This document shows positions 12,738-55,031 of a stretch of DNA of 64,000 nucleotides, one piece after another; position 1 is the first letter of the stretch, and each line of letters begins with the position of its first letter. The notes below the pieces were generated by a model. That model had not been told where the DNA came from. It made no database searches and saw only the letters and a list, made by a program, of their open reading frames with translations. Source of the DNA: a virus. Lineage: Duplodnaviria > Heunggongvirae > Uroviricota > Caudoviricetes. The position numbers were made by a program, and so were the translations under genes. The stretch lies in IMG/VR virus record IMGVR_UViG_3300021400_000932; one strand, given 5' to 3'.

Positions 12738-13190
12738 TCAGATTTCTTTGAACTCCAAAAATTTATGACCGAATATCTTATAGTAAGGTGCTGGGAGTTC
12801 TCGGAATACATAGTAATTTATTGCGTCCGCCAATAATATTGCCGGAAAGGACAATGCGAACCAAATACAAGAAAATGGCAAGCAGATTATGCCTTTATAG
12901 TTAAAAGGTAAATTTGAATAGTCCCACATTTTTGGTATGATACCATGTAATGCAAGCTCTCCAAATATAAATTCCAATCCGGTTATTACCAAGCAGCCTA
13001 TTAAACATTGTAATAGGATATCCATATCCCAACTTATGTGGTTGTTGATTTTGTCTATGACCACCAAAGCGATACCGCCGCACACACCCATCAATGGATA
13101 TGATACTCCACGATAGCACACTTCAATAGCAATATATGTACAGAAACCAACAAGAAACAATACAAGGTTCTTTATGATTATTCGTTTCAT
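12738..13190 (-). CDS. Putative ABC-transporter permease-like membrane protein (CmpB/TMEM229-like)
   Basis: Four hydrophobic segments; ITGLEFIFG...MWDYSNLPFNYKGIICLPFS..W motif. Confidence 0.7.
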   Translation of the reverse strand: MKRIIIKNLVLFLVGFCTYIAIEVCYRGVSYPLMGVCGGIALVVIDKINNHISWDMDILLQCLIGCLVITGLEFIFGELALHGIIPKMWDYSNLPFNYKGIICLPFSCIWFALSFPAILLADAINYYVFRELPAPYYKIFGHKFLEFKEI

Positions 13191-13906
13191 TATGCACTCA
13201 ACTGATTAAGCAAATCTTTCAGAACTTCAGATTGATATTCTTCCGGAATAGCCACACCATAGGTAATTGCATTTACAGCATCTATGGTTTCTATGTGGTT
13301 GATGTAGTTTTTCAGAGAATTGTAATATGTAGTGTGGTATGTTTTGTGGGTGATAGCTTTGTTTGTGATGGTGATTATATCAGCAGCACTATAGTAGATG
13401 CATAAATTGCCAGCAGCATGGTATGGTAATCTGTCAATGCCTTTTTCTGCTAATTGCCTTAATTCTCCGAGGTTGGTTTGGTCTTCTTCATCCAAATCAA
13501 AATGATAGGTATTAGAATCAGACAAGGTGACGTCAATGCCTGCAACAATGACATTATGGCAGGTGGTATCCATCTCATCAATTTTAACTCGCCTTGCCAT
13601 TTCGAGGTCTGTTATTTCTGGGTCTATCGGTTCAGTTTCTCTATTTAATTGGTCAAGAAGATAAACATACTCCGATTCGGAAATTTCAGTCAAGAAAACA
13701 GTAAGAAAAATTCCTGCTTTCTGAGGGAAATCTGGTTTATCTGCAAGATGGAAGACTCTGCCGAGTCGTTGTGAGATAACCCCTCGAATGTCTGGGTCAT
13801 CAGCATTGCAACGAATTATAAGATTATTCTTTTCTTGGTATTTGCAATACTCAACACAATCCGTAACATCAATGACTTTTCCATTTTGAGTTAGCTTATA
13901 AAACAT
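13190..13906 (-). CDS. DUF4376-like tail-fibre assembly/accessory protein
   Basis: KIDEMDTTCHNVIVAGIDV...HFDLDEEDQTNL...YHA.G..C..YSAADI..I...A..HKTYHTTYYNSLK motif. Confidence 0.65.
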   Translation of the reverse strand: MFYKLTQNGKVIDVTDCVEYCKYQEKNNLIIRCNADDPDIRGVISQRLGRVFHLADKPDFPQKAGIFLTVFLTEISESEYVYLLDQLNRETEPIDPEITDLEMARRVKIDEMDTTCHNVIVAGIDVTLSDSNTYHFDLDEEDQTNLGELRQLAEKGIDRLPYHAAGNLCIYYSAADIITITNKAITHKTYHTTYYNSLKNYINHIETIDAVNAITYGVAIPEEYQSEVLKDLLNQLSA

Positions 13907-13929
13907 GTTATCTTCTCCTTTAATATATT

Positions 13930-15129
13930 CTATGCGGCTTTCTTCTCTTGGGTTGTAATAGAATTTCCGAATTTCGGACGTATGGGATTTGTGGGACCGG
14001 CTTTATCAAGTTTCTTGACATTTTTGCCAACCCTCGGCGGTTCATACCCATAGTGTTCTTTCCACATTAAGCGAAGATTGCGCCTTAGCTTGCAAGTATC
14101 ATATTTCTTTATATTTCCGATGGTAGATTTATAATACTGCTCTACTTGTTTGTGTTCTGCAAGTCCTGCGGCCTCTCTTTCAAACCACCATTTCATCTTT
14201 TGATACATACGAGTAACAGAACTTCTACTTATTCTGACAACAATCTTACCGGTGTCTTTCAACAAAAATCTTTTCTGTAAGAATGTAAATCCTCTTTTCA
14301 GTGCTAAGTAAAATGTTTTCTTTTTGTTTAGTTTCAATCCCCACCTTTGAGAAATTTCGTCTATTGCGGCGATAACCTCAACAGCTTCCTCTTTTGTGCG
14401 GACTAAAATCCATCCATCATCCATATACTGAACATAATAGCGTATCCGTAATTTGTCTTTTAGATAATGACAAATTTTAGAAGTGTAGAATACCGCAAGA
14501 GTTTGAGAAACTTCACTACCGAGATTCAGTCCGTGGTCATCTGAGGTTATATAGACCATATTGCGAACAAGGTTCAGAATCCGTTCGTCCTCGATGTATT
14601 CATTAACTAGTTGTATAGCAGTTTCTCTCGGTATGCTATCAAAATAAGATTTGAAATCAAATCTTATAACATACCCGTCTGTTCCATATTTGCGATAATA
14701 TTCACCAAGCAGTCGCTTGACTCGCTTAATAGCAAAAGTAGTTCCCTTATTTTTCTGGCTTGCACCGTTATCATAAATAATTGTTCTGCCAAGTATAGGG
14801 TTAAGACAAAATTTGCATAAGCATTTTTGTACTACTCGTTCTCGTATATGAATGCTGTTTATTATACGCAGCTTACCTCGTTCATAAATAACAAATATGG
14901 TATTTGTTTTGATAACAAAGGTAAGGGTTGCAAGTTCATCAAAAAGTTGGTCGCACTTCAAATGAAGTTGAAATGCGAAATTCTTGACACTCGTTTTCCA
15001 TCGCACACCACGCAAGCACATATATGCAGAAATGACAAGGTGTTCATAGGAAAATACTAAATCATAGTCAAAGTATTCGGGCAATCGAGATTTCCAATTA
15101 TTGAATCTGATTAAAGAGTAATAATTCAC
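13930..15129 (-). CDS. DGR reverse transcriptase
   Basis: YMDD catalytic motif, GLNLGSEVSQ (DGR-type GxxxSQ) and FDFKSYFDSI; GTG start; adjacent TR, Avd and VRs. Confidence 0.97.
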   Translation of the reverse strand: MNYYSLIRFNNWKSRLPEYFDYDLVFSYEHLVISAYMCLRGVRWKTSVKNFAFQLHLKCDQLFDELATLTFVIKTNTIFVIYERGKLRIINSIHIRERVVQKCLCKFCLNPILGRTIIYDNGASQKNKGTTFAIKRVKRLLGEYYRKYGTDGYVIRFDFKSYFDSIPRETAIQLVNEYIEDERILNLVRNMVYITSDDHGLNLGSEVSQTLAVFYTSKICHYLKDKLRIRYYVQYMDDGWILVRTKEEAVEVIAAIDEISQRWGLKLNKKKTFYLALKRGFTFLQKRFLLKDTGKIVVRISRSSVTRMYQKMKWWFEREAAGLAEHKQVEQYYKSTIGNIKKYDTCKLRRNLRLMWKEHYGYEPPRVGKNVKKLDKAGPTNPIRPKFGNSITTQEKKAA

Positions 15130-15433
15130 CGCTGTCCTACGCTTCTTCCTAATAGCAACTAGTTCAGTTGATTAGAGTCGTAGTGGAGTTCATCTTATAG
15201 TAAGATAAGGTCATACACTCCTTCTGAAGAATCCTTACAAGGCTTTCATCATTGACCCGAAAGGTAAGTCTTATAAGACAGTTTTACTCTCGGTGAATAC
15301 TAACCTAAGTGTCTCCTTTGGAAGGACATGTCCACCCAAAAGATTTACTACCAACAAGTACAAGGACATTTACACATAAAGTGCATATCGCAGTATCTCG
15401 CGACCCTGATACCAGATTTGTGTTAGCAATTCC
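15130..15433 (-). ncRNA. DGR spacer (3' part of the template RNA between TR and RT)
   Basis: About 300 nt of non-coding sequence directly 3' of the TR with several short inverted repeats; position matches the spacer of characterised DGRs. Confidence 0.55.
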
Positions 15434-15526
15434 CAGAATCCGAAGCCAACGCTGTAGGAATTATTGGCGTTGTTGTTGTTCCCTGAACCACTCGTATTGA
15501 CATTCCAGAAATTCGTCGAGGACTGA
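15434..15526 (-). repeat. DGR template repeat (TR), 93 bp
   Basis: AAT/AAC-rich. Aligns with both VRs with mismatches only at TR adenines. Confidence 0.97.
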
Positions 15527-15633
15527 ACGGGATGTACAGCATATAACCTTTGCAAAAAAATCTACGGTGGAGATGTGGAAATCTCGATGCCTATATTCTA
15601 AGCAGACAAAGTAAATAGGAAAAGAATGAATTT

Positions 15634-16068
15634 CTACGGAGTGGTTTTCTCCTGTGCCAACTTCTTTTTCATATCTTTAGCCCTTGCTGCGTCAGAACGC
15701 ATTAATGCTTTCATCTGTCTAGTTGCACTATTTACAAAGTGCATCCACCGATGCATTCGTGTTTTCTTTATCTTATAACATTCAGAAATCAATGTGGCTT
15801 CTTCTGCGAACAGATAAGCAGACTGGATTGATTGTTTAAAATATTTTTCACGAATTTCGGCATCTTCCGGTTTATTGAAGTAATGGTTGTTAGCACGGCA
15901 TCCATATCTTTCAGCATCTGTAGCTAATTTATACAGGTCTTTTAAAGCGAACTCTCTTGATTTCTTGCTTTGTTTGTTACACCAAGCGATTACATCCTTG
16001 CGGAGAAATTTGAGTTCATCTTTGAATGATGCTTTAGATAAAGTTTGTTTACTTTTTGGGACGCTCAT
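15634..16068 (-). CDS. avd: DGR accessory variability determinant (Avd-like four-helix bundle)
   Basis: Basic helical 144 aa protein (MSVPKSKQ...W...MRSDAAR) immediately upstream of TR and RT. Confidence 0.85.
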   Translation of the reverse strand: MSVPKSKQTLSKASFKDELKFLRKDVIAWCNKQSKKSREFALKDLYKLATDAERYGCRANNHYFNKPEDAEIREKYFKQSIQSAYLFAEEATLISECYKIKKTRMHRWMHFVNSATRQMKALMRSDAARAKDMKKKLAQEKTTP

Positions 16069-16129
16069 GCCGACCTCTAATCAAATGGATTACCTATTTA
16101 TTTTTATTTGTACCTCAAGGTACATTATT

Positions 16130-16140
16130 ATTTAAGGTTA
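16130..16140 (-). promoter_or_regulatory. Promoter-like motif TAACCTTAAAT upstream of avd-TR-RT
   Basis: AACC variant of the recurring upstream motif. Confidence 0.45.
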
Positions 16141-16167
16141 TTTTAATTACCTGCGTGTCTTACTTTG

Positions 16168-16244
16168 GTAGAGTATTCGCAAAGGCTCATACTCTACTCA
16201 AACTGCTCCGTATGCAGGGACTTGCGCCCTGCAATTACGGAGCA
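16168..16244 (-). other. Two-hairpin element downstream of VR1
   Basis: Hairpin 16204-16244 (minus-strand loop CGCAAGT) and hairpin 16168-16197 (loop GAGCCTTTGCGA). Confidence 0.8.
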
Positions 16245-16256
16245 AATTAAAGGAAA

Positions 16257-17993
16257 TTAATCTCTGCCAAGGCAGAAGCCGAAGCCAACGCTGTAGGAAC
16301 CACCGGCGACGTAGCTGAACCCTGAACCACTCGTATAGACAGACCAGAAACCCGTCGAGGACTGATGAGCTGGTGTTCCTGTCCAATAGTATACAGCGAT
16401 ACCGGTGCCTAAACCAAGTTTCTTTATTCTGGTTGCGTTGCTTACATAATAAGGGAATGCTACACTATCTGCACCAGAATCTACTTCATAGCTGTACGGT
16501 GCCGCTGTCTGCAATCCTAAATCTGCTGCAGTTTCATTATAGAGAGGATATTCTACCATTGTGGTGGTTTCTTTCGAATTACCATCTAATCTCGGATATT
16601 TGAGAGTTGGAATAGAAGTTACGATTGTATCCGGTAGAGCAGAATACAGCAAAGGAAATGTTGTACTTAACATTCTGGATGTTGGGAAACCGCCTACATT
16701 TGTATTTCCGGAATTCATCGGTCCTGCGGTATCTGTTCCATCAGCAATACTCCAACAAGTATGTGCGAACTGATTTGTTCCGGCAATTTTATAGTGGTTA
16801 TAACCGACAAATCTAAATCGGAATGTTACATCAGAAGATGCATTGTCACCAAGTTCTACTCGCATTATATCGCCGATAGAAATATAATCCAAATAGTTGT
16901 TAGAATTGCAAATTGCAAGTAGTTCTCCCCAAGTGTATGCCGAAGTGTATTCAGGATTATTTGTCCACACATAATCAAACTGAGAAACATCGACAGGAGC
17001 TGCTGGTAATGCCAATTCAGAAAGTTTTGCGGTTATAACTGTATCATCGGTTATGTTGGTTAATGGTTTATCCCAACCATCGAAATACTTATTGGGGACG
17101 CTAATAGCACCACCGAGCCATTTAACAGACCCACCATCTTTTACATAAGAAGTTTGCTTCAGTTCTGAGTTTACATAGAACTCTACTTGATGCATAGGGA
17201 TTTCGGAAGTAGTGACTATGGTGTAGGTTAAAGTGCGTTCATTCTGTTCATAATCTATGATTTTCTGAACTGCTATATGCGTAGCCGATGGCGTTAGATA
17301 TGGCATAATATTGAAACTCAATGCACCCTGAGCTACATTTGTTTGACGGGAGATTTCGTTTCCGTTCAATGTCCATATTACCGTTCCGACTCCGGTTTGT
17401 GTGTGGTCAACATTCCACAGGCTATCCCATGTGCTGGTAAGATTAAACTCCTGGGATGGGATAAACTCTATGTTCTGAGCCATACCGCCGGAAGTGGTAT
17501 TGGTTAGTCTTGTGGTAATAGTATATCCAAGAGTGGTATCAGCATAGTTCTTTACCGCTCTTGAGGTAGGAATACCGGTCGAAGTACTGGATATAGCTAC
17601 ATCGGCAGCTTGCGTAGTTCCTGTCAAAGTCTGACCGGAGATGGCAACACTCTTGACAAAAGTTACTGCATCACCGACAACCTCACCGGTGCAGTTCGTA
17701 AGAGTAGCAATAACAGTCCAATCATAGGAACTACCATTCTTACTACAAGTATATAGTGTATTTCCCTCGGAATAGACATAGATGATTCCTTCTACACCCT
17801 CAGTCGCAGGCGTCGGAACAGCATTGAGGAATCTTACCGATTTAGTGTATTCATCCGCACCGACAAATATCTGGTGGGTGTCAGTAAGGAAATACAGAGT
17901 ATCGGTATCTTTGGTTTGCAGATTGTTGAAACTTGCTGAAGTTCCAACCATAAAGTTTATTTTGGAATTTACATTCGGCATAGCATTAATCAC
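16257..17993 (-). CDS. DGR target protein 1 (receptor-binding tail protein; DUF6273/CLec-like C-terminus, Listeria-Bacteroides repeat)
   Basis: N-terminal KDTDTLYFLTD tail motif, VEFYV...YFDGWDK..NITDDTVITAK repeat, and C-terminal VR ending YSVGFGFCL. Confidence 0.9.
   Translation of the reverse strand: MINAMPNVNSKINFMVGTSASFNNLQTKDTDTLYFLTDTHQIFVGADEYTKSVRFLNAVPTPATEGVEGIIYVYSEGNTLYTCSKNGSSYDWTVIATLTNCTGEVVGDAVTFVKSVAISGQTLTGTTQAADVAISSTSTGIPTSRAVKNYADTTLGYTITTRLTNTTSGGMAQNIEFIPSQEFNLTSTWDSLWNVDHTQTGVGTVIWTLNGNEISRQTNVAQGALSFNIMPYLTPSATHIAVQKIIDYEQNERTLTYTIVTTSEIPMHQVEFYVNSELKQTSYVKDGGSVKWLGGAISVPNKYFDGWDKPLTNITDDTVITAKLSELALPAAPVDVSQFDYVWTNNPEYTSAYTWGELLAICNSNNYLDYISIGDIMRVELGDNASSDVTFRFRFVGYNHYKIAGTNQFAHTCWSIADGTDTAGPMNSGNTNVGGFPTSRMLSTTFPLLYSALPDTIVTSIPTLKYPRLDGNSKETTTMVEYPLYNETAADLGLQTAAPYSYEVDSGADSVAFPYYVSNATRIKKLGLGTGIAVYYWTGTPAHQSSTGFWSVYTSGSGFSYVAGGSYSVGFGFCLGRD
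16273..16365 (-). repeat. Variable repeat VR1 (93 bp)
   Basis: 16 mismatches to the TR, all at TR adenines. Confidence 0.97.
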
Positions 17994-18026
17994 CTCATAA
18001 TTTAATAGTTTGTCATTTGGTTGATG

Positions 18027-18099
18027 GGTGGCTCACACCTCGCAGGCTCGGCGTTCACCACAGCTCTAATGCGGGGACTTGCGCCCCGCAAATTAGAGC
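18027..18099 (-). other. Two-hairpin element downstream of VR2
   Basis: Hairpin 18063-18099 (loop CGCAAGT) and hairpin 18027-18059 (loop GAGCCTGCGA); stems differ from the VR1 copy but keep their pairing. Confidence 0.8.
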
Positions 18100-18114
18100 A
18101 AAAATTAAGGGAAA

Positions 18115-19872
18115 TTAAGTTCTGCAAAAGCAGAAGCCGAAGCCAACGCTGTAGGAACTATAGGCGCCGTTGCCGGCGTACCCCGAACCACCCGCACCGA
18201 CACCCCAGAAAGGCGCCGAGGACTGAGAAACAGCGGTTCTTAGCCAATATTCTCTTGCATTTCCTGCACCCACATATTGTTTCTTCTGTCTTAGTGCATT
18301 GGTGGTATAATAAGGGAATGCTACATTTCGGGAACCGGAATCTATCTCAAAGGTGTATGGGAATGTAGAAGCACCAATGACACCCATATCAATACCACTA
18401 GCTACATACAGCTTATGTGATACCGTATCTCCATGTGCTTGGTAGTCATCATCTAAGTAATTGAAACATTTATATTCAAGAGGTCCGATGTTATTAGAAA
18501 TAAACTCAGGGAACAGAGCGAGTATAGCATCGAGATTTTGCTTAAACATCTTCGACTCTTTGAAACCACCTGCATTGGTAGCCGAAGTATTCATCTGGTA
18601 ACCATCAGGACTTGTAAATGCATTATGATAATCCCACACTACATTAGCATATACAGCAGGGTCTGAGCCAGCCACTTTGAAATGCTTAAAATCAACGGCT
18701 GTAAATTCCATTGCATGGGTATGAAGATTATTGTCGGGAAGAAGCAATCGCATCTTGTTTCCGATTGAAATATAATCTTCGAAATCATCTGTCAGATTTG
18801 CGGCAAGGAACTCGCCAAAGGTATATGCAGAAGTATAATTTGGGTCATTTGTATAGATGTAATCATATTGAGATACATCGACAGGTGTTGCCGGTAAGCT
18901 GTACTGAGAATATACCCCGTGGATATCGGTATTCTGAGTAATATTCTTCAGAGAGGTATCCCAACCCTCCCAGTAGTAGCCATCCTTTAGCATACTTACT
19001 AAGTTAAGCCACTTTACATCTTGACCATTCTCGACATAGCTTGTCTGAACTATGGTCGAATCCTTGTAGAAGTTTACTGTCCACACAGGTATCTCTGCGG
19101 TAGTCGTGATTGTATATGTGATGGGTGAGGTTTCATTTCCCTCTGCATCTCTGATTTTTACTGTAACTGTGTGGGTTGCAGATGGTGATATGTAAGGCAT
19201 AATATTGAAAGTGATGTTACCCTGTGCTACTGAGTTAGCAGCAACCTGAGTACCATTTACAGTATAAATCGCTGTACCCATACCTGTCTGAGTATTATCA
19301 TAGTTCCAAATACTGCTCCAAGTATTCTTGATTAAATACTCTTGGCTTGGAATAAATTTTACATCCAAAGCAGTTCCTGGCATACCATTGGAGATTCTAC
19401 ATGTGATTGCATGCTTCAGAACGAAGTCAACATAGTTTCTTACGGCAAGAGACGTCGGAATTCCGGCATATCCATTCTGAATATCGGTATCCGCAGCTTG
19501 CACCGTACCGGATAGCGTTTCTCCATTCATAGATACAGATTTAACGAATGAAGTAGCACTTCCGGTGACATCACCGGAACAGTTTGTAAGATTCGCCACC
19601 TTAGTCCAAGAATATAAATTCCCACTAACAGGATGAACAATATACAGAGATGGACTATCCGGATAATAATAAAGTTTTCCGGTTGTTCCTGCAGTAGATG
19701 TAGTAGGTTCTGCTTGCAGAACTTCCAATGATTTAGTGTACTCGTGAGAACCTACATAGATTTTATACTCGTCTGTGATGAAATATAGGGTATCATCATC
19801 CTTAACAAGTAAATTATCGTATGCAGATTTTACACAGGGTACAAATTTTATTTGGTTATTAGCTGTTGGCAA
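18115..19872 (-). CDS. DGR target protein 2 (full-length paralog of target 1)
   Basis: Same architecture as target 1; TTG start; YWLRT...VR...YSVGFGFCF. Confidence 0.9.
   Translation of the reverse strand: MPTANNQIKFVPCVKSAYDNLLVKDDDTLYFITDEYKIYVGSHEYTKSLEVLQAEPTTSTAGTTGKLYYYPDSPSLYIVHPVSGNLYSWTKVANLTNCSGDVTGSATSFVKSVSMNGETLSGTVQAADTDIQNGYAGIPTSLAVRNYVDFVLKHAITCRISNGMPGTALDVKFIPSQEYLIKNTWSSIWNYDNTQTGMGTAIYTVNGTQVAANSVAQGNITFNIMPYISPSATHTVTVKIRDAEGNETSPITYTITTTAEIPVWTVNFYKDSTIVQTSYVENGQDVKWLNLVSMLKDGYYWEGWDTSLKNITQNTDIHGVYSQYSLPATPVDVSQYDYIYTNDPNYTSAYTFGEFLAANLTDDFEDYISIGNKMRLLLPDNNLHTHAMEFTAVDFKHFKVAGSDPAVYANVVWDYHNAFTSPDGYQMNTSATNAGGFKESKMFKQNLDAILALFPEFISNNIGPLEYKCFNYLDDDYQAHGDTVSHKLYVASGIDMGVIGASTFPYTFEIDSGSRNVAFPYYTTNALRQKKQYVGAGNAREYWLRTAVSQSSAPFWGVGAGGSGYAGNGAYSSYSVGFGFCFCRT
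18131..18226 (-). repeat. Variable repeat VR2 (96 bp)
   Basis: 18 mismatches at TR adenines plus one extra NNC codon in the AAC run. Confidence 0.95.
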
Positions 19873-19891
19873 AATCGGTCACCCTTTCACA

Positions 19892-20395
19892 TTATATAGA
19901 TTTCCAAGATATGGCCCCAAACACTTGTGCAGATGTGGGGATTTTGGATGAATCATTTTCGAGGTTATTTGCTGAGCTGATAGATTTATTTGAATTCTGA
20001 GCATTGCCGGTTGAATCTCCGATAAGTATTTTATTCTCAGCATTTTCCACTATATCAATTTTACCATCAAGAAGTTCATTAACTTCCGTTTTCTGGTAGT
20101 ATGGTGTTAAATCAATCTCAGTAGTTCCTATTTTCTCCCACTTAGGTGGCTCTGTATTCCAGATGTATTCATCATACACATTTGGTTCCTCACCACCATT
20201 TGGAAGAAGATAAATAACTCCTTCAGAGCCGGTTTCAGGAAGTTCTTCAACAACAGTATATTGAATTACATCGGCAAGTTTTCTGTCAACCTCAGCCTTT
20301 GTGTATGTGTTTGCCTTGTCGGCCTTAGTAGCGGCTATGGTGTCGGTATATATCTTTGCACCTTTTTTCGCTATTGCGATACTAATTATATCCAT
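19892..20395 (-). CDS. Tail fibre-associated protein
   Basis: VVEELPETG..GVIYL...YDEYIW...WEKIG..EIDLTPYYQKTEV motif common in gut-phage fibres. Confidence 0.6.
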   Translation of the reverse strand: MDIISIAIAKKGAKIYTDTIAATKADKANTYTKAEVDRKLADVIQYTVVEELPETGSEGVIYLLPNGGEEPNVYDEYIWNTEPPKWEKIGTTEIDLTPYYQKTEVNELLDGKIDIVENAENKILIGDSTGNAQNSNKSISSANNLENDSSKIPTSAQVFGAISWKSI

Positions 20396-20398
20396 AAA

Positions 20399-20650
20399 TC
20401 AAACCTCGTGCCAAGCATCATTTGTTTCATCATAAAGGAAAGCTGTGCCGGTATCAATTTCAAAAGCTGCTGAACCATTTCCCTTACCTGGAATAAGAGA
20501 AAGTTTAGTAAAATCGGCATGGTTGAGCCTAAAATCAAAGATATATTTTCCATCCACCATCTGTGTTGGCGTGGCTATTGAAATTGAGCCAAAATCAATA
20601 TTTTCATCCGCATTCCAAGAAATACCGAATTTTCGTATTAGAACATTCAT
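20399..20650 (-). CDS. Small virion-associated protein
   Basis: GSAAFEIDTGTAFLYDE...W motif. Confidence 0.55.
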   Translation of the reverse strand: MNVLIRKFGISWNADENIDFGSISIATPTQMVDGKYIFDFRLNHADFTKLSLIPGKGNGSAAFEIDTGTAFLYDETNDAWHEV

Positions 20651-20667
20651 ACTGAACTATACCTCCA

Positions 20668-21465
20668 TTATTTTATAATATAAATATCTAACAGGATATC
20701 ATCTTGTGGTAGTGTGTCACAATGAAATTCTATAGAATCATCGAGCTGGTCGGATTGGTATATACCGCACTTGTTGTACATATACTGACCATCTCCATAT
20801 CTTGGCTGAATAATTAATTTCGTTTCTGAAGTGATGCCTGATATAGAATTTATAACCGCTACATTTTCTGACCAATCGCCTGCATGTATGGTCACTTCTT
20901 CTCTTTGAATCTTTTTCTGGGTTGAGTCTGCATCTGGCTTATTATTCCAAGTTTCTTTTTCTTCATCAGTAACAAGTCTATGCTCTGCATCATCTTCCAA
21001 ATCGGACAGCTTTACAGTAGAACCAATATCCCAGTCATCCCAACTTTGAGTTTCCACATTCCACTCATAATAGTTAGTGGTATTGTTAGTAGAATCATTA
21101 ACCCGAACAATTCTACCATTCGGCATAAACTCAGTTATAAGTTTATCTCTCTGAGCTATACTGTCTAATGTGATGAAAGCTCTGGATTCTATATCACGAA
21201 GTTCAGGACTTAGCGGTACAGGGTTTCTATCATCATCAGAAGAATTCGGAACGACCGTAAGTAATGATAGATTTACTTGCGTTGCCGGAACTATAGTTTT
21301 AGCAGGTAAAATGATGAAATGCCATCCATTCATAGCATTTTCTTCATATTTGTACCAACCATAGGCAACAACCGCTATGGCGTCTGGATATTCAGATAGA
21401 ATTACTGTATCTCCGTTATATATTATCTTTCCTGTTTCCGGTATAGTAAAATATGCAACAGCCAT
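20668..21465 (-). CDS. Structural/tail-associated protein
   Basis: DDAEHRLVTDEEKETWN fibre motif; N-terminal domain shared with 21943-22311. Confidence 0.55.
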   Translation of the reverse strand: MAVAYFTIPETGKIIYNGDTVILSEYPDAIAVVAYGWYKYEENAMNGWHFIILPAKTIVPATQVNLSLLTVVPNSSDDDRNPVPLSPELRDIESRAFITLDSIAQRDKLITEFMPNGRIVRVNDSTNNTTNYYEWNVETQSWDDWDIGSTVKLSDLEDDAEHRLVTDEEKETWNNKPDADSTQKKIQREEVTIHAGDWSENVAVINSISGITSETKLIIQPRYGDGQYMYNKCGIYQSDQLDDSIEFHCDTLPQDDILLDIYIIK

Positions 21466-22731: not shown

Positions 22732-24693
22732 TCAATCTGCTGTCAAGAATTTGTCCCTAAACTCTTGTTCGGACATCACGACCGTACCGAACTTCTTGGC
22801 TGCGGTGTTTTTAGAAGAACCAGAATTTGGGTCATCTGTAATAAGATATTTAGTTTTCTTTGTGACGGATGATGCAGGTGTAAAGCCGGCCGCTTTCAAT
22901 TCCCACTCAAACTCGCTTCGCTTTACACTCAGCTTTCCGGTAATGCATACTGCAATTTCTTCTTTTTGCTTAGGAGCATTCCAAATGATGTTATCTTTGA
23001 TAAATGATAACCGATGGAGCTTATCTCTGTTCGCAACAAGCGTGGCATAATTCGCTTTTCCTATACCCTTTACACCATTGAGGTTGTACTGCTGAGGGTT
23101 ATTTAGGAAGTCTTTAAGCTCTTTATGATATGTTGCCAACTTGGTTGCAGTAACTGCACCAAATCCAGGAATATTCAGAGCTTGAATGGCATCCGATAAG
23201 GAGAATTTGCCATCTATGAGGGTGTTGTAGGCGTGTGCAAACTTTTTATACTGTACCGATTCAGAAGTTTCATCAATTCTGCCATGCAGATAAATCTTTT
23301 CGATGCTTGCTGCCTTGCCAAACATATCCTCAAGGAACTTGCAGATGAGGGTATCGCCGAGACCATCTGTCGGTGCTAATTTATTAAACCACACAAGGAC
23401 ATCCTGAATGCTGGCATTGTAGCAATTCGGATTTTTGCATTGCAAATGAACACCATTCCAAGCAAGAGGTTCCCCACACACTGGACAGTGCGTAGGCAAA
23501 GAATACCCAACACCCATAAGAACATCTGTTATCTGGGGAATTATTTCATTTGCTTTAGTAATCATGACCTGAGCCCCAATGCCGATTCCGGATTCTTTGA
23601 TGTACTGTGCATTGATTCCGGTGCAATATTGAACAGTAGAACCGGCAAGTTCGACAGGTTGAACTTTGATTCTCGGCATAAGGTATCTCGTCTTTGTAAG
23701 TTCCCACAGCACATCAACAACTTTGGTTTGCTTGGAATCTGTCGGGAATTTATAAGCTACTGCATAGTATTCGATATTATTACCGTCTCTGCGGAATTTA
23801 TCACATGTAAGAACAATTCCATCCGCAGGAAGCTCATCATACCACTTTGCCTTGCAGTTCTGCATAATGCGTTCAAACAAAGATTCGGATGCGGAAACCT
23901 TAGAAAATACATCTCCGAGCCATTCACTCGGAACGGTGTACCCAGCGAATACTGTATGAATAAACTCAAGTATGCCGAAGTAAGAATCAATCAATGTACG
24001 GTGTCCGGAACTCTTAACCACAAATGAATCATGGTGCTTTGAGCTATTCACATAGATAGTAGGATAATTTTCACTTCCTACGATACTATACAGATAGATA
24101 TTTACGAACTTCAAATCATCCGTAATTTCTTTGCCATTGATGATACCAGCGGCAGAGTTTCTACTATTCTTTGCATCCGGATTCAGCTTTTTGAACTTCT
24201 GGAATTTGCTTTCGGTCATAAGAAGTTCTCCGCGGAATGCACCGGTAAAATTCTTGGCTGTCGGAATTATACCAAACTGATTTTTGAGGATTTGATAAAC
24301 TTTATCGGTGATGTCGATGCCGATATTACCCTTACCTCTTGTAACCGCACGAACGAAATGACCATTTTCATAGTAAAGCACAACGGAAAGACCATCGAGT
24401 TTTAAGGATGCGATAACGCCATGGTGCTCAAACTTTCTTCGAATATCTTTCTTAATTTCTAAGTAGGTGTGGCACTTGTCAAGTGAACCAACTTCTCCAT
24501 ACAAATGTTGTGCTTTAGCACCAGGCACAGAAAAGATATCAAATCCGTGTCCGGTATTAAGCAACGGAGAATCGGGGTCTTCCTCTCTGAGCTGTCCAAT
24601 CAAGGCATCGAACTCTTCATCAGAAAGATTGGAAGAACCATCTGTGTAGTATGCCTGTGAAGCATTTTTGATTTTGTCCATTAGATTACTCAT
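22732..24693 (-). CDS. ligA: NAD-dependent DNA ligase
   Basis: YY...LSDEEFD, SLDK, KLDGLS adenylation motif, TRG.G..G.DIT, RNSAAG, AYKF, CPVCG zinc finger, C-terminal BRCT. Confidence 0.93.
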   Translation of the reverse strand: MSNLMDKIKNASQAYYTDGSSNLSDEEFDALIGQLREEDPDSPLLNTGHGFDIFSVPGAKAQHLYGEVGSLDKCHTYLEIKKDIRRKFEHHGVIASLKLDGLSVVLYYENGHFVRAVTRGKGNIGIDITDKVYQILKNQFGIIPTAKNFTGAFRGELLMTESKFQKFKKLNPDAKNSRNSAAGIINGKEITDDLKFVNIYLYSIVGSENYPTIYVNSSKHHDSFVVKSSGHRTLIDSYFGILEFIHTVFAGYTVPSEWLGDVFSKVSASESLFERIMQNCKAKWYDELPADGIVLTCDKFRRDGNNIEYYAVAYKFPTDSKQTKVVDVLWELTKTRYLMPRIKVQPVELAGSTVQYCTGINAQYIKESGIGIGAQVMITKANEIIPQITDVLMGVGYSLPTHCPVCGEPLAWNGVHLQCKNPNCYNASIQDVLVWFNKLAPTDGLGDTLICKFLEDMFGKAASIEKIYLHGRIDETSESVQYKKFAHAYNTLIDGKFSLSDAIQALNIPGFGAVTATKLATYHKELKDFLNNPQQYNLNGVKGIGKANYATLVANRDKLHRLSFIKDNIIWNAPKQKEEIAVCITGKLSVKRSEFEWELKAAGFTPASSVTKKTKYLITDDPNSGSSKNTAAKKFGTVVMSEQEFRDKFLTAD

Positions 24694-26205: not shown

Positions 26206-28059
26206 TTAGATATTTATTTTGTGAATTTGGTTTGTTACTTCTTTAACACCTGCGGTAATTATCTGTATACCCTCTACTTCAGATAATCTTTCGAAAAGAG
26301 TATACACATTTTCACTATCGAGGTGGTCAAGCATATCATCTACCATAACGAGCTTCAATGTTCCGGTGGTTGCCGATGCGATATACAACATAATGGAAAA
26401 GGCAACCAAAGTCTTTTCGCCGGAACTCAAAAGTTCGTAAGGAATGTATTTATTGTTTCTCATAATTCCGAAACTGAAGGAATTTGCTTTGGTTGATAAC
26501 TCAGTTCGGAATTTCACATCTTCATGGAACAAGGTTGTAAGATACTGGTCTACCTTTACTTCCAATTCAGCAAACGGTTCCATCGCTACCTTTGTTTGAA
26601 GATTGTTTGCATCGGTATATTTTGCCCACACATTGAGAATATCGACATGGTTCTGAATGGTTAGCTTTTTGTTTGTAAACTTGTCGATAGTTTCATCATA
26701 TTTCTTGTTGGCGATGCAATGGGATAATTTAACCCTAAGAGCTTCTGCCTGTTGGTCATATTGTGCAATCGCAGCTACGAGAGCATCCATATCGCTATCC
26801 GGAACAATCTCCGACAGCTTCTGTTCGATTTCATCACGCTGTCGATATGCTGCGATAAGTTGCTGGATTCTGTTCGCATATGCAGTTTCTTGTTGCCTAT
26901 CCGATTCGAGCTTTGCTTCTAATTTTGATATTGTCTGTTCAATCTCAGCTCGCTCATCTAACAGATTGACTTTCTGCACATTGAGTTCAGCAATATTCTT
27001 CCGAATATCTAACATGGAATTCAGAATAATGTCGCACGGTGCTTTAGAATATGGACACATACCATTGCCCGATAATGTCTTTTGAAAATCGGTAATTTTT
27101 ATTCCAATAGCAGAACACTTGTCGTGTAGTTCTCCGCAATGTTCCCGAAGTTCAGCAATACGGGATTTCAGAAATTTGATATCATCAAGACAATGAAGCC
27201 GCTTTGCACCGAGGGAGATATATTCTTTATCTTCTTTGAGTGTTTTGGCAGGAAGGGTTGTTTCCGCTTGCTGACTTTTCAGATAATTATAGGTTTCTAA
27301 TTTGGATTTATCCTCTACTGCTTTTGTTCGCAAATCCGAAATTTGAGCAAGCTGCTGATTGATGTTATCAATCTCAACATCATAATTTGAAACTGCGGCA
27401 TCATCATAGAAAATCAAAGACCGGATACCTCCATCAATCATAGCAAGATTTTGTTTCTCAGATGAAAGCATATCCTTGATAATCTGATTTGCCTCAATGA
27501 CCGCATCTACTCCGGATGCCTTGATTTTAGAAAGTCTCTCGGAGATTTGTGTTCTGAATTCTGGGTCGAGTTCTACAACATCAGCATTGAGCGATGCTTG
27601 GTCTAACTCAGCATCCCAATCAAATTTGGAATCGAGCTTAGGCAAAAAGTTGATAAACCATGCTTTGAGCATATTGGATGATAACCCCATAAACCCACCG
27701 AAATCCAAAATCGGAAGTTCGGCATTTCCAATTATCGAAGATACTCCCACACCCTCCGGAGTGATTTCCTCTGTACAGGAGATGGACTTCGCATTCTGCT
27801 CCCAGCACTTTCTGATAGTTACGCCACCAGACAAGTTAAGAGTAATCTCCATTTTTCTTCCGCAGGAATGCTTGAAGATATCCCCAACCTTTTTATTTGT
27901 ACCAGGGATATAACCAAGCAGAACGAGCTGAATTGCCTGAAGGATTGTTGACTTGCCGGCACCGTTTGTACCGAAGATGTAATTCATATCCTCAAAGGTG
28001 TAGGTGGTAGGCTTATTCAGCTTATGCATACCTTCAATGGTTATTGATTCTATTTTCAT
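26206..28059 (-). CDS. Rad50/SbcC-like SMC-family ATPase
   Basis: GTNGAGKS Walker A, long coiled coil with CPYSKAPC hook-like motif, LSSGEK signature, VDDMLDHLD Walker B/D-loop. Confidence 0.85.
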   Translation of the reverse strand: MKIESITIEGMHKLNKPTTYTFEDMNYIFGTNGAGKSTILQAIQLVLLGYIPGTNKKVGDIFKHSCGRKMEITLNLSGGVTIRKCWEQNAKSISCTEEITPEGVGVSSIIGNAELPILDFGGFMGLSSNMLKAWFINFLPKLDSKFDWDAELDQASLNADVVELDPEFRTQISERLSKIKASGVDAVIEANQIIKDMLSSEKQNLAMIDGGIRSLIFYDDAAVSNYDVEIDNINQQLAQISDLRTKAVEDKSKLETYNYLKSQQAETTLPAKTLKEDKEYISLGAKRLHCLDDIKFLKSRIAELREHCGELHDKCSAIGIKITDFQKTLSGNGMCPYSKAPCDIILNSMLDIRKNIAELNVQKVNLLDERAEIEQTISKLEAKLESDRQQETAYANRIQQLIAAYRQRDEIEQKLSEIVPDSDMDALVAAIAQYDQQAEALRVKLSHCIANKKYDETIDKFTNKKLTIQNHVDILNVWAKYTDANNLQTKVAMEPFAELEVKVDQYLTTLFHEDVKFRTELSTKANSFSFGIMRNNKYIPYELLSSGEKTLVAFSIMLYIASATTGTLKLVMVDDMLDHLDSENVYTLFERLSEVEGIQIITAGVKEVTNQIHKINI

Positions 28060-28068
28060 ATAACATCC

Positions 28069-29679
28069 TCACTTTACATATCCTCTGAATACAATCAGCT
28101 TCTGTTTTGCTCGTGTGATTGCAACATAGAAGATATTTTTATTTTCTTCGCTTTTTCCAAGCAATCCGAATGTCGGATTTCCCGCATTAACTATGATTAC
28201 TCTATCGAACTCTAAACCCTTAACACTGTGAACCGTTCCGCAGTATACTCCGGAAACCTCAGCAGCATCTAAAGTTTTTATCGCATCGACAATGGCTTCA
28301 TATTTGTTTTCACAATCTTCGAAGATATCTTGGTCCAAGTCAAACATATCAGAAATTTTCTCATTGAGCTCATCAACAGATTTTGTCGCTGTGATAAGAC
28401 GTCTGACATCGAAAACTTTGTTTGCTGCTTGACACACTTGCGGATATTTACCGAAGTTTTTGATGAACCATTCGCTTGTTACTTCTTCCTCTCCGGCTGA
28501 AAGCATCAGATAATTAGAATAAGCATGGGAGTTTAAGACTACTGACATCCAGTTCACGAAGTATTCATCATCAATAGCACTTTTTAAAATGCTGTGAACA
28601 TAGTCTTTTTTCTTGTCCGAATGAGTAGCGATACCGTAATCTTTCAGTTGCTCTTGCAGATATGAAACCTCGGCATTCGTTCGACATAGGATAGCGGTAT
28701 CCATTTCTTCCGATTTCAATTCTTCGGCGATTTTATCAATACACATTTCTGTAATTGGGTATCGCCTGTCGAAATCCAAATAACTATCCTCAATTTCATC
28801 TACTTCGACACCATCTCTGTTACTTTCAAGAGGTATTCTGTAGGAATCCTTTGCATAGTGGCTGTGGTCATTTGCATACTCACAAATCTGTTTGGTTGAC
28901 CGGTAATTCCGGTTCATTCTGATTTTTTCCCAGTCATCATTTTCAGACAGCATCTTAATGTACTCATTACTTGTACCTCTGAATGAGTACAGATTTTGTA
29001 AAGCATCTCCAACAAAGAAAAATGAAGTGTTCGGAAATGAATTCAGAAACTTTATCTGGATAGCATCGGTATCTTGAAATTCATCTACAAAGATGTGCTT
29101 ATATCTATTTTTGTAACTCAAGATAGAAGCATCATTGGTATAGAACAGCTTGCAGATTTCTTCTAACAGAATATCGAATGTGATAAGATTGCTCTTGGCA
29201 AGTTGCCTGCGGTATGCTTTGTAGAAGATTTCATATTTAGTTTTATCCTTAGCTTTCAGTTCTTTCGGATTCTGAAGGTCATTAGATGAAAACTTCAATC
29301 CGCACTGAAGCATAGCCATCTGTTCTACTTTTTTCTGCATTGCATCATTAGCAATAGAGGGAGTATATGAATATCCGATGGCGTTTCGAACTTGCGGATT
29401 TCTTGACAGTATTGAGTAGCAAAAACTGTGGAATGTTCGGAATTCAGGAACCTTACCAACTTTACCTACTCTTGCCTTATACCGTTCTTCCATTTCCAGA
29501 GCGGCAGCATTTGTGAATGTGATGCACAGAATGTGGTCTGGATTTACACCAGTTTCAACAAGCCTACATATACGGGAAATCAGAACATGAGTTTTTCCTG
29601 CACCGGCACATGCCAAGCACAGGATTCTTTGACTATCGGAATTTACAGCAAGCTGTTGCTGTTCATTTAATTTATACAT
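28069..29679 (-). CDS. UvrD/Rep/PcrA-family SF1 helicase
   Basis: AGAGKT, TFTNAAA, TFHSF, VDEFQD, VGD..Q..YSFRG, NYRS, TVHSVKGLEF, YVAITRA. Confidence 0.93.
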   Translation of the reverse strand: MYKLNEQQQLAVNSDSQRILCLACAGAGKTHVLISRICRLVETGVNPDHILCITFTNAAALEMEERYKARVGKVGKVPEFRTFHSFCYSILSRNPQVRNAIGYSYTPSIANDAMQKKVEQMAMLQCGLKFSSNDLQNPKELKAKDKTKYEIFYKAYRRQLAKSNLITFDILLEEICKLFYTNDASILSYKNRYKHIFVDEFQDTDAIQIKFLNSFPNTSFFFVGDALQNLYSFRGTSNEYIKMLSENDDWEKIRMNRNYRSTKQICEYANDHSHYAKDSYRIPLESNRDGVEVDEIEDSYLDFDRRYPITEMCIDKIAEELKSEEMDTAILCRTNAEVSYLQEQLKDYGIATHSDKKKDYVHSILKSAIDDEYFVNWMSVVLNSHAYSNYLMLSAGEEEVTSEWFIKNFGKYPQVCQAANKVFDVRRLITATKSVDELNEKISDMFDLDQDIFEDCENKYEAIVDAIKTLDAAEVSGVYCGTVHSVKGLEFDRVIIVNAGNPTFGLLGKSEENKNIFYVAITRAKQKLIVFRGYVK

Positions 29680-43089: not shown

Positions 43090-44463
43090 TTGACACTCCA
43101 CACAGTTAAAACCGTGGGATTCTTGCTTCACAGACCGCTGCGTCCTTACCACAGAGGAAGAACGTCTTACACAATCTCCACAAGCGTAAATTATAGAGTT
43201 TCCGTATGCCCTACGGTACTCTGTATATGTTAAGGTTAGGCAATCATAGCCAAACCTTTCTTTAAGATGTTTTGAGCTGCGTTAACATCTCTGTCATGAG
43301 ACGTACCACAGGAAGGACATACCCATTTACGGACAGCAAGGTTCTTTACAAGTGGATTTTTGTATCCGCAAGAACTACAGAGCTGACTGCTCGGATATGT
43401 AGTAGGTACTCTCTGTACTGTCCTGCCATACCAACGAGCTTTGTATTCAAGCATTGTAAAGAACTTGCTCCATGAAGCGGAAGATATGCTTTTAGCCAGC
43501 TTATGATTTTTCAGCATATTTTTGATTTTTAAATCTTCTACACAGATTACTTGGTTTTCGTTAATAAGTGTAGTAGACAGTTTTTGCAGAAAATCATTGC
43601 GCTGGTTGGTAATCTTCTCATGTACAGCGGCAACACGTTTGCGTTGTTTATCTTTGTTGTGGGAATCTTTAACCTTGCGTGAAAGTCTACGCTGTTCACG
43701 TCTGAGCTTGCGCTGTGCCTTCTCCAAATACTTGTGGTTGGGTATGGTGTTGCCATTACTATTCATAGCAAAGACCTTGATACCAACATCAAGACCAACT
43801 ATGGCATCCGTAGGTTCAAGCGGCATAGGCTCAAAATCTACATCAAGAGCAACAAAGTATTTGCCTGTGGGTGTCCGTTCAATAGTTACATTGTTAATAT
43901 GACCAACTTCCATAGACTGCTTGACTTTTACAAAGCCGAGCTTTGGAAGTTTGAGCTTTCCATCTACAATGCGAATATTATCACCCTGATTGAGCGTCCT
44001 GTAGCTTTGATGGTGGTTATGCTTACTTTTGAAACACGGATACTTACTCAAGTGCTTGAAGAAGTTTTGGTATGCTCTGTCCAAATCTCTCAAAGATTGT
44101 TGAAGAGCTATACTATCTGCGTCTTTGAGAAAAGCATACTCTTCTTGCTTCTTCATTCTCGTAAGCATAGCACTAGTTACAGTATAGTTTGCCTTCTCGC
44201 CAGCTTTGTACTGCTCCATGCGATAGGCAAGCCCATGATTGTAAATGAAACGAACACAACCAAGGGTGCAGTTTATTAAGTTTTGTTGTTCTTTGTTTGG
44301 ATATATTCGAAACTTTACACCTTTATTCATAGGACACCTGAAATACAACATTTATGGTTTATTTATATGTTAATTATACCATATTTTACACAAAAAACAA
44401 GGAAGAGGAATGACTTTCATTTCACCGATGGTATATAATCCGGACAATGAAAACTTTCTTTTC
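43090..44463 (-). mobile_element. IS200/IS605-family TnpB-only element
   Basis: Right end GAAT-hairpin-GTGTCAA ending at 43090. Probable left end after TTAT (44464-44467) with AAAG plus an imperfect hairpin. No tnpA. Confidence 0.8.
43236..44351 (-). CDS. tnpB: TnpB RNA-guided endonuclease
   Basis: HTH_OrfB N-terminus ([10 protein letters not shown]), RuvC D/E/D (GLDVG, VEDL, DRDVNAA), CSSC..CPSC zinc finger. Confidence 0.95.
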
Positions 44464-53780: not shown

Positions 53781-55031
53781 TCAGGCAACCCTTATTCTTA
53801 CAGGCGTGTCCACTTCGCCTCTACTGTATAGGACTGTTAAGTCCACAACGCTACTTTTTCTTAAAATATTCAATGCACCATTGACATCTGCATTAAGTAA
53901 TATTCCGTCAGCAGTTCTGTATAGTCCTCTCCATATACGTGTTCCGCTGAATTTATAAGCCTGCGGATTATCTGCATTGTATACAGGAATATTATCCCTG
54001 TCCCAGAAAGATGCCTGTGATGTATAGCTTTCTTCCTGTTCAACAAAAACAATGCCGTTCAGTTCACAGAGATATTCCAATTTTGAACGCAGTTTACCAT
54101 ACGGAATATTGACAAAGTTCTGTGCATTTTTCTTTTTCATGTGTACATTCTTCTGAAATGTTTCGTTATAGCCGATTACAAGCGTTCCAATATCATGGGC
54201 AATACAATAATCAATGATTTTTCTTGCAGTTTTGCTCATGTAGTCATTGACTCGTCTGTTCCTTTTACCAGCTAAGATTTTCTGCCGGTTTGTTGTTCCT
54301 TTTTTATCGCCCTGCCTATCTTTGATACCTTGCAGTCTTGCATTTTCTTTGTTGAACCACTGATTGACAGCTTTCAGTTGTCTGCCATCAATGATGAAAC
54401 TTCTGCCTTGATTTGATACAGCAGTCACAAGATTATTTACACCTAAATCCAGAGCAAGTGCATTGTTTTTGTTAAGATTTCTCTGAATACATTCAACTTC
54501 ATAAGTATACTGAATTTCAAAGAACCTTGCTCCTGATTTTGGGATGATTCTGATTTCCTTGATATGCTTATCAGCGAGTATTGGCGGCATCTTAAATTCA
54601 ACAGGTTTGTGTGTTCTTTTGAAAGTGTTGGAATATGGCAGAATCAGCTTGTTTTCTTTCAGTCGGACAAAGCCTATCACAAGTGTTGTAAATCCATCTT
54701 TTGGTAGATAATGCGGTAATTTGCAGCCCCCGAAAGAATATTTTCCTTTCTTTGCAAGTTTCAGAAGTCCGAAAAAACTTTTGAATGAACCGTCTACTGC
54801 TTTCAAAATTTGCTGTGCCATGTTAGAATTCAAAGTTTTGTAATTAGGACTGTCTTTCAGCAAGGTGTAATTTTTTTCATAGTTCAGATATTTGCCCTCT
54901 GTGAAATAATACTGACGGACATTGTAGATTGCCTCATTAGCAAGATTTTTTGCTGTATGACACAATTCTCTCAAAATACTGTATTCTTCCTTTGACAGAT
55001 GTTTTACTTGTTGCTTTACTGTTAGATACAT
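53781..55031 (-). CDS. tnpB: TnpB-family endonuclease
   Basis: MYLTVKQQVKHLSKEEY N-terminus, ALDLGVNN, EESYTSQ, NADVNGA. Confidence 0.92.
   Translation of the reverse strand: MYLTVKQQVKHLSKEEYSILRELCHTAKNLANEAIYNVRQYYFTEGKYLNYEKNYTLLKDSPNYKTLNSNMAQQILKAVDGSFKSFFGLLKLAKKGKYSFGGCKLPHYLPKDGFTTLVIGFVRLKENKLILPYSNTFKRTHKPVEFKMPPILADKHIKEIRIIPKSGARFFEIQYTYEVECIQRNLNKNNALALDLGVNNLVTAVSNQGRSFIIDGRQLKAVNQWFNKENARLQGIKDRQGDKKGTTNRQKILAGKRNRRVNDYMSKTARKIIDYCIAHDIGTLVIGYNETFQKNVHMKKKNAQNFVNIPYGKLRSKLEYLCELNGIVFVEQEESYTSQASFWDRDNIPVYNADNPQAYKFSGTRIWRGLYRTADGILLNADVNGALNILRKSSVVDLTVLYSRGEVDTPVRIRVA

Follow-up and report, generated by a model that had tools for sequence, protein, structure and literature searches.

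A probable complete diversity-generating retroelement with one template and two tandem target paralogs in a large uncultured phage

The virus record IMGVR_UViG_3300021400_000932 (Caudoviricetes; 64,000 nucleotides (nt), hereafter the window) contains, between positions 13930 and 19872, a cassette that we read with a probability of roughly 0.9 as a complete diversity-generating retroelement (DGR), consisting of a reverse transcriptase (RT), a template repeat (TR), an Avd-type accessory gene and two variable regions (VR1 and VR2), that diversifies two intact tandem paralogs. An earlier note on the same DNA had proposed such an element with two independently diversified target genes, and the proposal was supported by mismatches at adenines only, by an RT resembling bRT of BPP-1, by an accessory protein with an Avd-like fold and position, and by a comparison of 11 genomes. 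Every DGR feature that was tested for was found, and the element represents a known system in clean form.

The order target 2, target 1, avd, TR, spacer and RT, which the note had claimed, was recovered together with the positions of all parts, and the list of open reading frames (ORFs) placed every gene of the region on the minus strand. Target gene 2 (18115..19872) encodes a tail-fibre-like protein of 585 amino acids (aa) from a TTG start, with a C-terminal DUF6273-type domain. Target gene 1 (16257..17993) encodes 578 aa from a GTG start, or 574 aa from the ATG at 17981 that was called in public assemblies. Next come the accessory gene (15634..16068; 144 aa, a predicted Avd-type four-helix-bundle protein), the TR (15434..15526; 93 nt with 26 adenines and 9 Asn codons, including (AAC)4), a non-coding spacer of 304 nt (15130..15433) and the RT gene (13930..15129; 399 aa with a conserved GTG start). 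The TR lies outside the target ORFs and 304 nt upstream of the RT start, as in a DGR, and the VRs make up the last ~31-32 variable-region residues of the targets, followed by 5 residues and the stop codon.

A repeat finder picked out the 93-nt sequence at 15434-15526 and degenerate copies of it at 16273-16365 and about 18131-18226. VR1 (16273..16365, minus strand) is 93 nt long and carries 16 A-to-N substitutions and no indel, and VR2 (18131..18226, minus strand) is 96 nt long with 18 A-to-N substitutions and an AAC run lengthened by one NNC codon. The counts of 16 and 18 had been made by hand in the earlier note, which placed all of them at TR adenines; a computed alignment agreed and gave no non-A mismatches to the TR in either VR of the window. 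With 26 adenines in 93 nt, the hypergeometric chance that all changes fall at A was 1.4e-11 for VR1 and 2.1e-13 for VR2. The statement that the changes lie mostly in AAT/AAC codons was upheld for VR1 (15 of 16), and the length of 93 bp was correct for the TR and VR1 and not for VR2. In the TR the run reads GGG-(AAC)4-GCC, and the corresponding NNC codons numbered four in VR1 and five in VR2. The homology between the TR and the VRs opened at TCAGTCC, at the H-QSS codons just past the YW..T motif, as had been proposed, and stopped at TTCTG; the flanks upstream and beyond were unrelated. A scan of the 64-kb window with the TR adenines masked gave no third VR. A 61-aa ORF (15370-15555, minus strand) spans the TR and translates it in the frame used by the VRs (QSSTNFWNVN...GFGF). 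This ORF is unlikely to be a genuine gene, and its frame agrees with a possible derivation of the TR from the 3′ terminus of a target gene.

Both VRs of the window have GGC where the TR has GGA, and this position had been suggested to mark the boundary of the initiation of mutagenic homing (IMH) site. It was compared across public assemblies encoding the same proteins, which gave 11 genomes with 21 VRs, all sharing one layout of two targets, accessory gene, TR and RT. The TR terminus was GGA(T/C)TCTG, and all 21 VRs terminated in GGCTTCTG. The TR end never replaced the VR end, and TR markers upstream of it did transfer. The final 6 nt were never transferred from TR to VR, which places the IMH boundary there and bears out the suggestion. 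A short hairpin overlapped the end of each VR and none followed the TR; the one at VR1 (16262..16277, minus strand) has a 5-6-bp stem and a 4-nt loop, and the one at VR2 (18120..18135, minus strand), adjacent to the IMH, has a 6-bp stem and a 4-nt loop. After this GC hairpin came a second, AT-rich hairpin, in the ~40 nt 3′ of the VRs (16233-16272 and 18091-18130, minus strand), which are conserved between the paralogs and contain the stop codon and 3′ untranslated region. An 83-nt repeat, D4 (82% between the paralogs), reached into the 3′ end of each VR.

An Rfam scan of 13000-21000 gave two sub-threshold chance matches only. A metagenome scan with a 20-mer of the A-free VR end gave 30 matches, none of them a VR and none window-like. 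In L034, L043, L045, L051 and L052 (contigs of 78-195 kb, several of them near 190 kb) the 20-mer lay in a conserved Glu/Ala/Lys-rich coding sequence; these contigs had no similarity to the window, and the match is probably a coincidence.

The 399-aa ORF is by homology a DGR-clade RT. It matched PF00078 at 6e-18 and phrog_1423 at 7e-62, and it carries the DGR-typical G-x-x-x-SQ motif and YMDD. Its best relative in the PDB was bRT of BPP-1 (8ub7, E 7e-15), in which GSLTSQ aligned to GSEVSQ of the window protein and YMDD was conserved. Models of group II introns, retrons and defence-associated reverse transcriptases (DRTs) scored far weaker on this protein or far under their cut-offs. Between L023 and the window, the RT gene differed by 25 synonymous and 0 non-synonymous changes. 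In another genome (L064:7357-8400), the C-terminal tail of the RT has a deletion and a frameshift, leaving 347 aa instead of 399, and the reading frame of VR1 is shifted by +2, so the DGR may be in decay there.

The 144-aa ORF is, as judged from its modelled structure and its position, an Avd-type accessory protein that escapes the current models of Pfam, PHROG and NCBIfam. It gave no match to Pfam, PHROG, NCBIfam or PDB sequences, and a profile search of the PDB with its family also gave none. An exhaustive HMMER search found 22 relatives, and an AlphaFold2 (AF2) model built on their alignment had a predicted local distance difference test (pLDDT) score of 90 and four long helices forming a four-helix bundle. 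The structures that it matched best were the PF05635 proteins 2gsc (VIA Z 14.3) and 2rld (Z 13.9), followed by the bAvd chains 8ub8_C, 8ub7_B and 4dwl_C (Z 12.4-12.6; 110/114 residues at 2.1 Å). Several points speak against this assignment. For helical bundles, Z 12-14 is close to background, no Avd family matches the protein significantly in sequence, and among 21 of its relatives there was one PF05635 match (3e-4) and one bAvd match (0.02). With the Z values near background, the cassette position becomes the stronger argument for Avd identity. In 21 of 21 IMG/VR loci with RTs ~35% identical to ours, a profile search placed a homolog of the accessory gene ~500 nt upstream of the RT, and in L032 the homolog sits between a DUF6273 target and the RT. 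In each of these 22 distant DGR loci, the gap between accessory gene and RT held the locus's own A-biased TR/VR pair. Structure and position together agree with an Avd protein, and sequence alone does not decide.

Comparison of the related genomes showed that sequence information passes from TR to VR. Across the 21 VRs there were 247 A-to-N changes versus 24 non-A changes, and the latter lay mostly at the first position of VR1 or within its and VR2's final 6 nt. Between close strains the divergence was 3-5% in the target bodies and 16-24% in VR1 and VR2, and all 93 nt of the TR were the same. The TR-RT spacer was ~1% divergent in these strains, compared with 2.6-4.8% for the flanking genes; it is probably part of the DGR RNA, with a function assumed from BPP-1. 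Non-A changes of the TR that were specific to one strain recurred in the cognate VRs in four genomes, namely two markers in L023, a C-to-T change in CAGTCTTCG of L028, GGC/GGT in L029 and an AAC-for-TAC codon in L030. The presence of strain-specific TR changes in the same strain's VRs shows that TR-to-VR transfer took place after the strains split. At the protein level, ~58 public C-termini varied at Asn-codon positions only.

The ratio of non-synonymous to synonymous substitution (dN/dS) was 0.02-0.07 for the target bodies, the accessory gene and the RT, and this held even where dS exceeded 1. The values were 0.02-0.05 for target 2, 0.03-0.06 for target 1, 0.02-0.07 for the RT and, except for 0.17 in one close-strain pair, 0.02-0.07 for the accessory gene. 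An apparent divergence of 21.6% in the accessory gene of L024 was an artefact of a scaffold gap of Ns. Strong purifying selection on the target bodies combined with variation in the VRs argues that both paralogs are maintained and that both are substrates. The element has evidently been active recently, with both VRs rewritten, as judged from differences between samples.

Target 1 and target 2 are 46% identical over their full length, and the C-terminal ~235 residues of both belong, on profile evidence, to DUF6273. Direct matches to PF19789 (DUF6273) were absent for target 1 and reached 15.5 bits for target 2 against a cut-off of 23.5, and the paralog P0007 scored 23.7 bits. A profile of the C-terminal 249 aa of target 1, compared with the C-terminal domain of a DGR target annotated by Pfam as DUF6273, gave a probability of 99.5% and an E-value of 4e-22 over 231 columns. 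Ninety-seven of 100 atlas feature matches lay in the DUF6273-bearing cluster set (top score 0.97). Published models of DUF6273 targets from gut-phage DGRs show C-type-lectin domains (PMC10743442), and from these models and the homology the target domain here would have a C-type-lectin fold. A profile of the domain had no match among PDB sequences. Weighing against this picture, the AF2 model of target residues 330-578, built on a 35-sequence alignment, had a pLDDT of 31 and was unusable.

The targets are probably tail-fibre or receptor-binding proteins, a role suggested by motifs and neighbouring genes. Phage_tail_C was matched at the N-termini of the targets at E 6.5e-4 to 1.3e-3, and the targets have their N-terminal motif in common with proteins that carry PF24243 and PF12789 tail domains. 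The neighbours on the same strand encode a 'tail fiber protein' (DUF4376/phrog_1348), a protein with YadA head repeats and one of 167 aa that matched tail-fibre PHROGs weakly. A caution here is that the motif matches are sub-threshold and that the rest of the argument comes from the neighbours. The targets might instead be diversified adhesins of a different sort, carried on the virion or secreted, that attach for example to mucus, debris or non-host cells, in which case the element would not tune host range. This is unlikely, but the N-terminal 325 residues have no family match (the atlas look-alikes scored ≤0.81 and were uninformative), the Phage_tail_C matches are under the Pfam cut-off, and published work on two-target phage DGRs does not settle what their targets do (PMC10743442). 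The position of the target genes amid same-strand tail-fibre-like genes and the N-terminal motif shared with bearers of tail domains speak for the receptor-binding role, as does the predominance of receptor-binding tail proteins among the DGR targets of phages examined to date (PMC10743442).

The scaffold of the targets is itself exchanged between strains. At L029:4501-6243, a third type of paralog (the P0007/P0034 cluster), which shares ~50% identity with target 1 and 44% with target 2, occupies the slot of target 1 and carries the same VR; the TR is retained through such swaps. At L028:952-2047, just upstream of target 2, there is an IS605-type OrfB/TnpB-like element that was called as two adjacent minus-strand genes. 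The window has transposase genes of the IS605 OrfB/TnpB-like type at 43236-44351 and 53781-55031 (phrog_506).

The VRs also vary in length. Compared with their TR, 16 of the 21 VRs were longer (by 1, 2, 3, 4, 6, 9 or 12 nt) and none was shorter, at loci comprising 18131-18226 of the window, L023-L030 and L064-L069. The insertions lay mostly in the AAC run, and the added codons kept the NNC form. In VR1 of L024, the insertion is a duplicated AAC-GCC unit, and single-base insertions, which occur in L030 and L065, adjoin the AAT-AAT-TCC junction. Four of the 21 VRs were out of frame (VR2 of L026 and L030, VR1 of L064 and L065), with the other VR in frame in all four genomes, and about 12 of 46 public protein variants were frameshifted. 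Wu et al. 2018 (PMC5758913) found TR/VR indels in 25 of 372 DGRs (7%), with 74% of the indels next to AAC and frameshifts in 11 DGRs, and attributed the indels in AAC runs, including frameshifts, to RT slippage, which is discussed again in PMC12875486. The element described here is like those DGRs in that indels are mostly multiples of three in or by the AAC run, in its occasional frameshifts and in unlike patterns at the two targets of one DGR. It differs from them in showing this at population scale in one element and with insertions only, and this insertion-only bias at that scale is the one mildly new detail.

The longer VRs could also have been copied from longer TRs whose AAC run later shrank. 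The run does vary, being (AAC)5 in L028 and (AAC)4 in the remaining 10 of 11 genomes, but the constancy of (AAC)4 in those 10, some with dS >1, makes this quite improbable, and the VRs of near-identical strains hold 4, 5, 6 or 8 NNC codons. Further, the two VRs of L026 are lengthened unequally in one genome (+12 for VR1 and +4 for VR2), VR1 of L024 repeats AAC-GCC instead of extending the AAC run, and L030 and L065 have insertions of single bases. RT slippage is the preferred reading. A more speculative and rather unlikely idea is that the DGR is tuned for diversity of loop length as well as of sequence, with directional AAC expansion resembling complementarity-determining region 3 (CDR3) and carrying a cost in frameshifts, and that the paralog pair is kept partly as a fail-safe. 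If this were true, the phage would always keep one in-frame receptor-binding protein.

The only other assembly of the window strain, L022 (Logan SRR873599; 100% identical to the window), begins inside VR2, at window position 18176. A break there would be expected if VR2 were heterogeneous in that sample. A reservation about activity is that, for the window genome itself, ongoing diversification is deduced from the comparison between samples. The least probable alternative, namely that the DGR was formerly active and is now frozen in the window genome, or that one VR only is still a substrate and the second is a relic of duplication, could point to VR1 of L022, which is 100% identical, and to VR2 of L029, which has 5 non-A mismatches to its own TR as in a VR that was not lately rewritten, but it has against it the zero non-A mismatches of both window VRs, the intact RT, accessory gene, TR, IMH end and hairpins, the 16-24% difference at both VRs among strains whose target bodies differ by 3-5%, and the broken end of L022, as a heterogeneous site would give.

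We propose, for a DGR that is active at both targets, a mechanism modelled on BPP-1. The RT and the Avd-type accessory protein would jointly copy an RNA with the TR and the spacer, and the adenines of the template would be copied as random bases. The cDNA would then replace the last ~93 nt of the coding sequence in either of the tandem paralogs, beginning where the TR-VR homology sets in (CAGTCC) and ending at a fixed 3′ boundary immediately ahead of GGCTTCTG and of the short VR-specific hairpin. In this way both paralogs would be re-randomised independently at about 12-14 residues of the C-terminal DUF6273 domain. The RT would often re-copy AAC units, so that the variable loop would gain 1-4 codons and sometimes a frameshift.

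Contigs with identical or near-identical target proteins are 189-194 kb long, in keeping with the large phage assumed in the earlier note. The carrier appears to be an uncultured rumen phage of ~193 kb, the sample names of its relatives (SHIW14, STEW19) pointing to the rumen. GenBank phages gave no near-identical DNA and one weak match to a target protein. The helicase shares only 25-28% identity with Bacillus SPO1-like phages and gut contigs. A Bacillota host is plausible. Helicase and SbcC-like genes lie at 26206-29679, after a full-length homolog of an NAD-dependent DNA ligase (22732-24693, minus strand; phrog_3869, 1e-115), 3 kb from the cassette.

The notability of two targets had been overstated, as two-target DGRs are already documented. 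They make up 13% of DGRs (PMC5758913), two-target phage DGRs with a DUF6273 target have been described (PMC10743442), and a second VR, ~8 kb away, was present in 5 of the 22 distantly related loci of the RT's own clade. Compared with the prototype, the BPP-1 DGR (mtd-avd-TR-brt), the element is alike in the order target, accessory gene, TR and RT, in adenine-specific substitutions, in a VR placed 3′-terminally in a phage tail-protein gene (the tail role here being putative), and in a fixed 3′ IMH boundary followed by a hairpin found at VRs only. bRT is the closest solved relative of the RT, and bAvd superposes on the accessory model. In contrast, BPP-1 has one target, of the Mtd fold family, and here there are two, of DUF6273; sequence comparison detects no similarity between the accessory protein and bAvd; and the IMH is much shorter, with the TR-VR homology stopping right after TTCTG. 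The IMH of BPP-1 spans 14+21 bp, and its genome is ~42 kb, compared with the ~193 kb of this phage.

The nd4/nd12 gut-phage and Faecalibacterium-prophage DGRs (PMC10743442, PMC11792537) are alike in having one TR for two targets in a phage, one of them a DUF6273 protein with a C-terminal VR that is modelled as a C-type lectin, and in variation at A positions at both VRs across related genomes. Their targets are topologically unrelated, a tentaclin with an N-terminal VR and a small DUF6273 protein, whereas those described here are full-length tandem paralogs with both VRs C-terminal. The RT-clade relatives (L001-L021 from IMG/VR, and L032) share the layout, the accessory family and A-biased TR/VR pairs, and L032 has a DUF6273 target. 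Their RTs are only ~35% identical to that of the window, and the second VR, where present, lies ~8 kb downstream of the RT and not in tandem. The element departs from known DGRs in detail only: its targets are full-length paralogs in tandem, its IMH is very short, its Avd family is divergent and the phage that carries it is large.

These findings leave the known working of DGRs unchanged. They provide a well-resolved natural case in which one template serves two full-length paralogous phage proteins with a putative role in the tail, and they add a distant Avd-type sequence family and a population-scale view of insertion-only AAC slippage. The group of ~193 kb rumen phages may serve as a test bed for a possible co-variation of the two VRs, for a possible adaptive value of variation in VR length and for the tolerance of frameshifted receptor-binding genes by a large phage.

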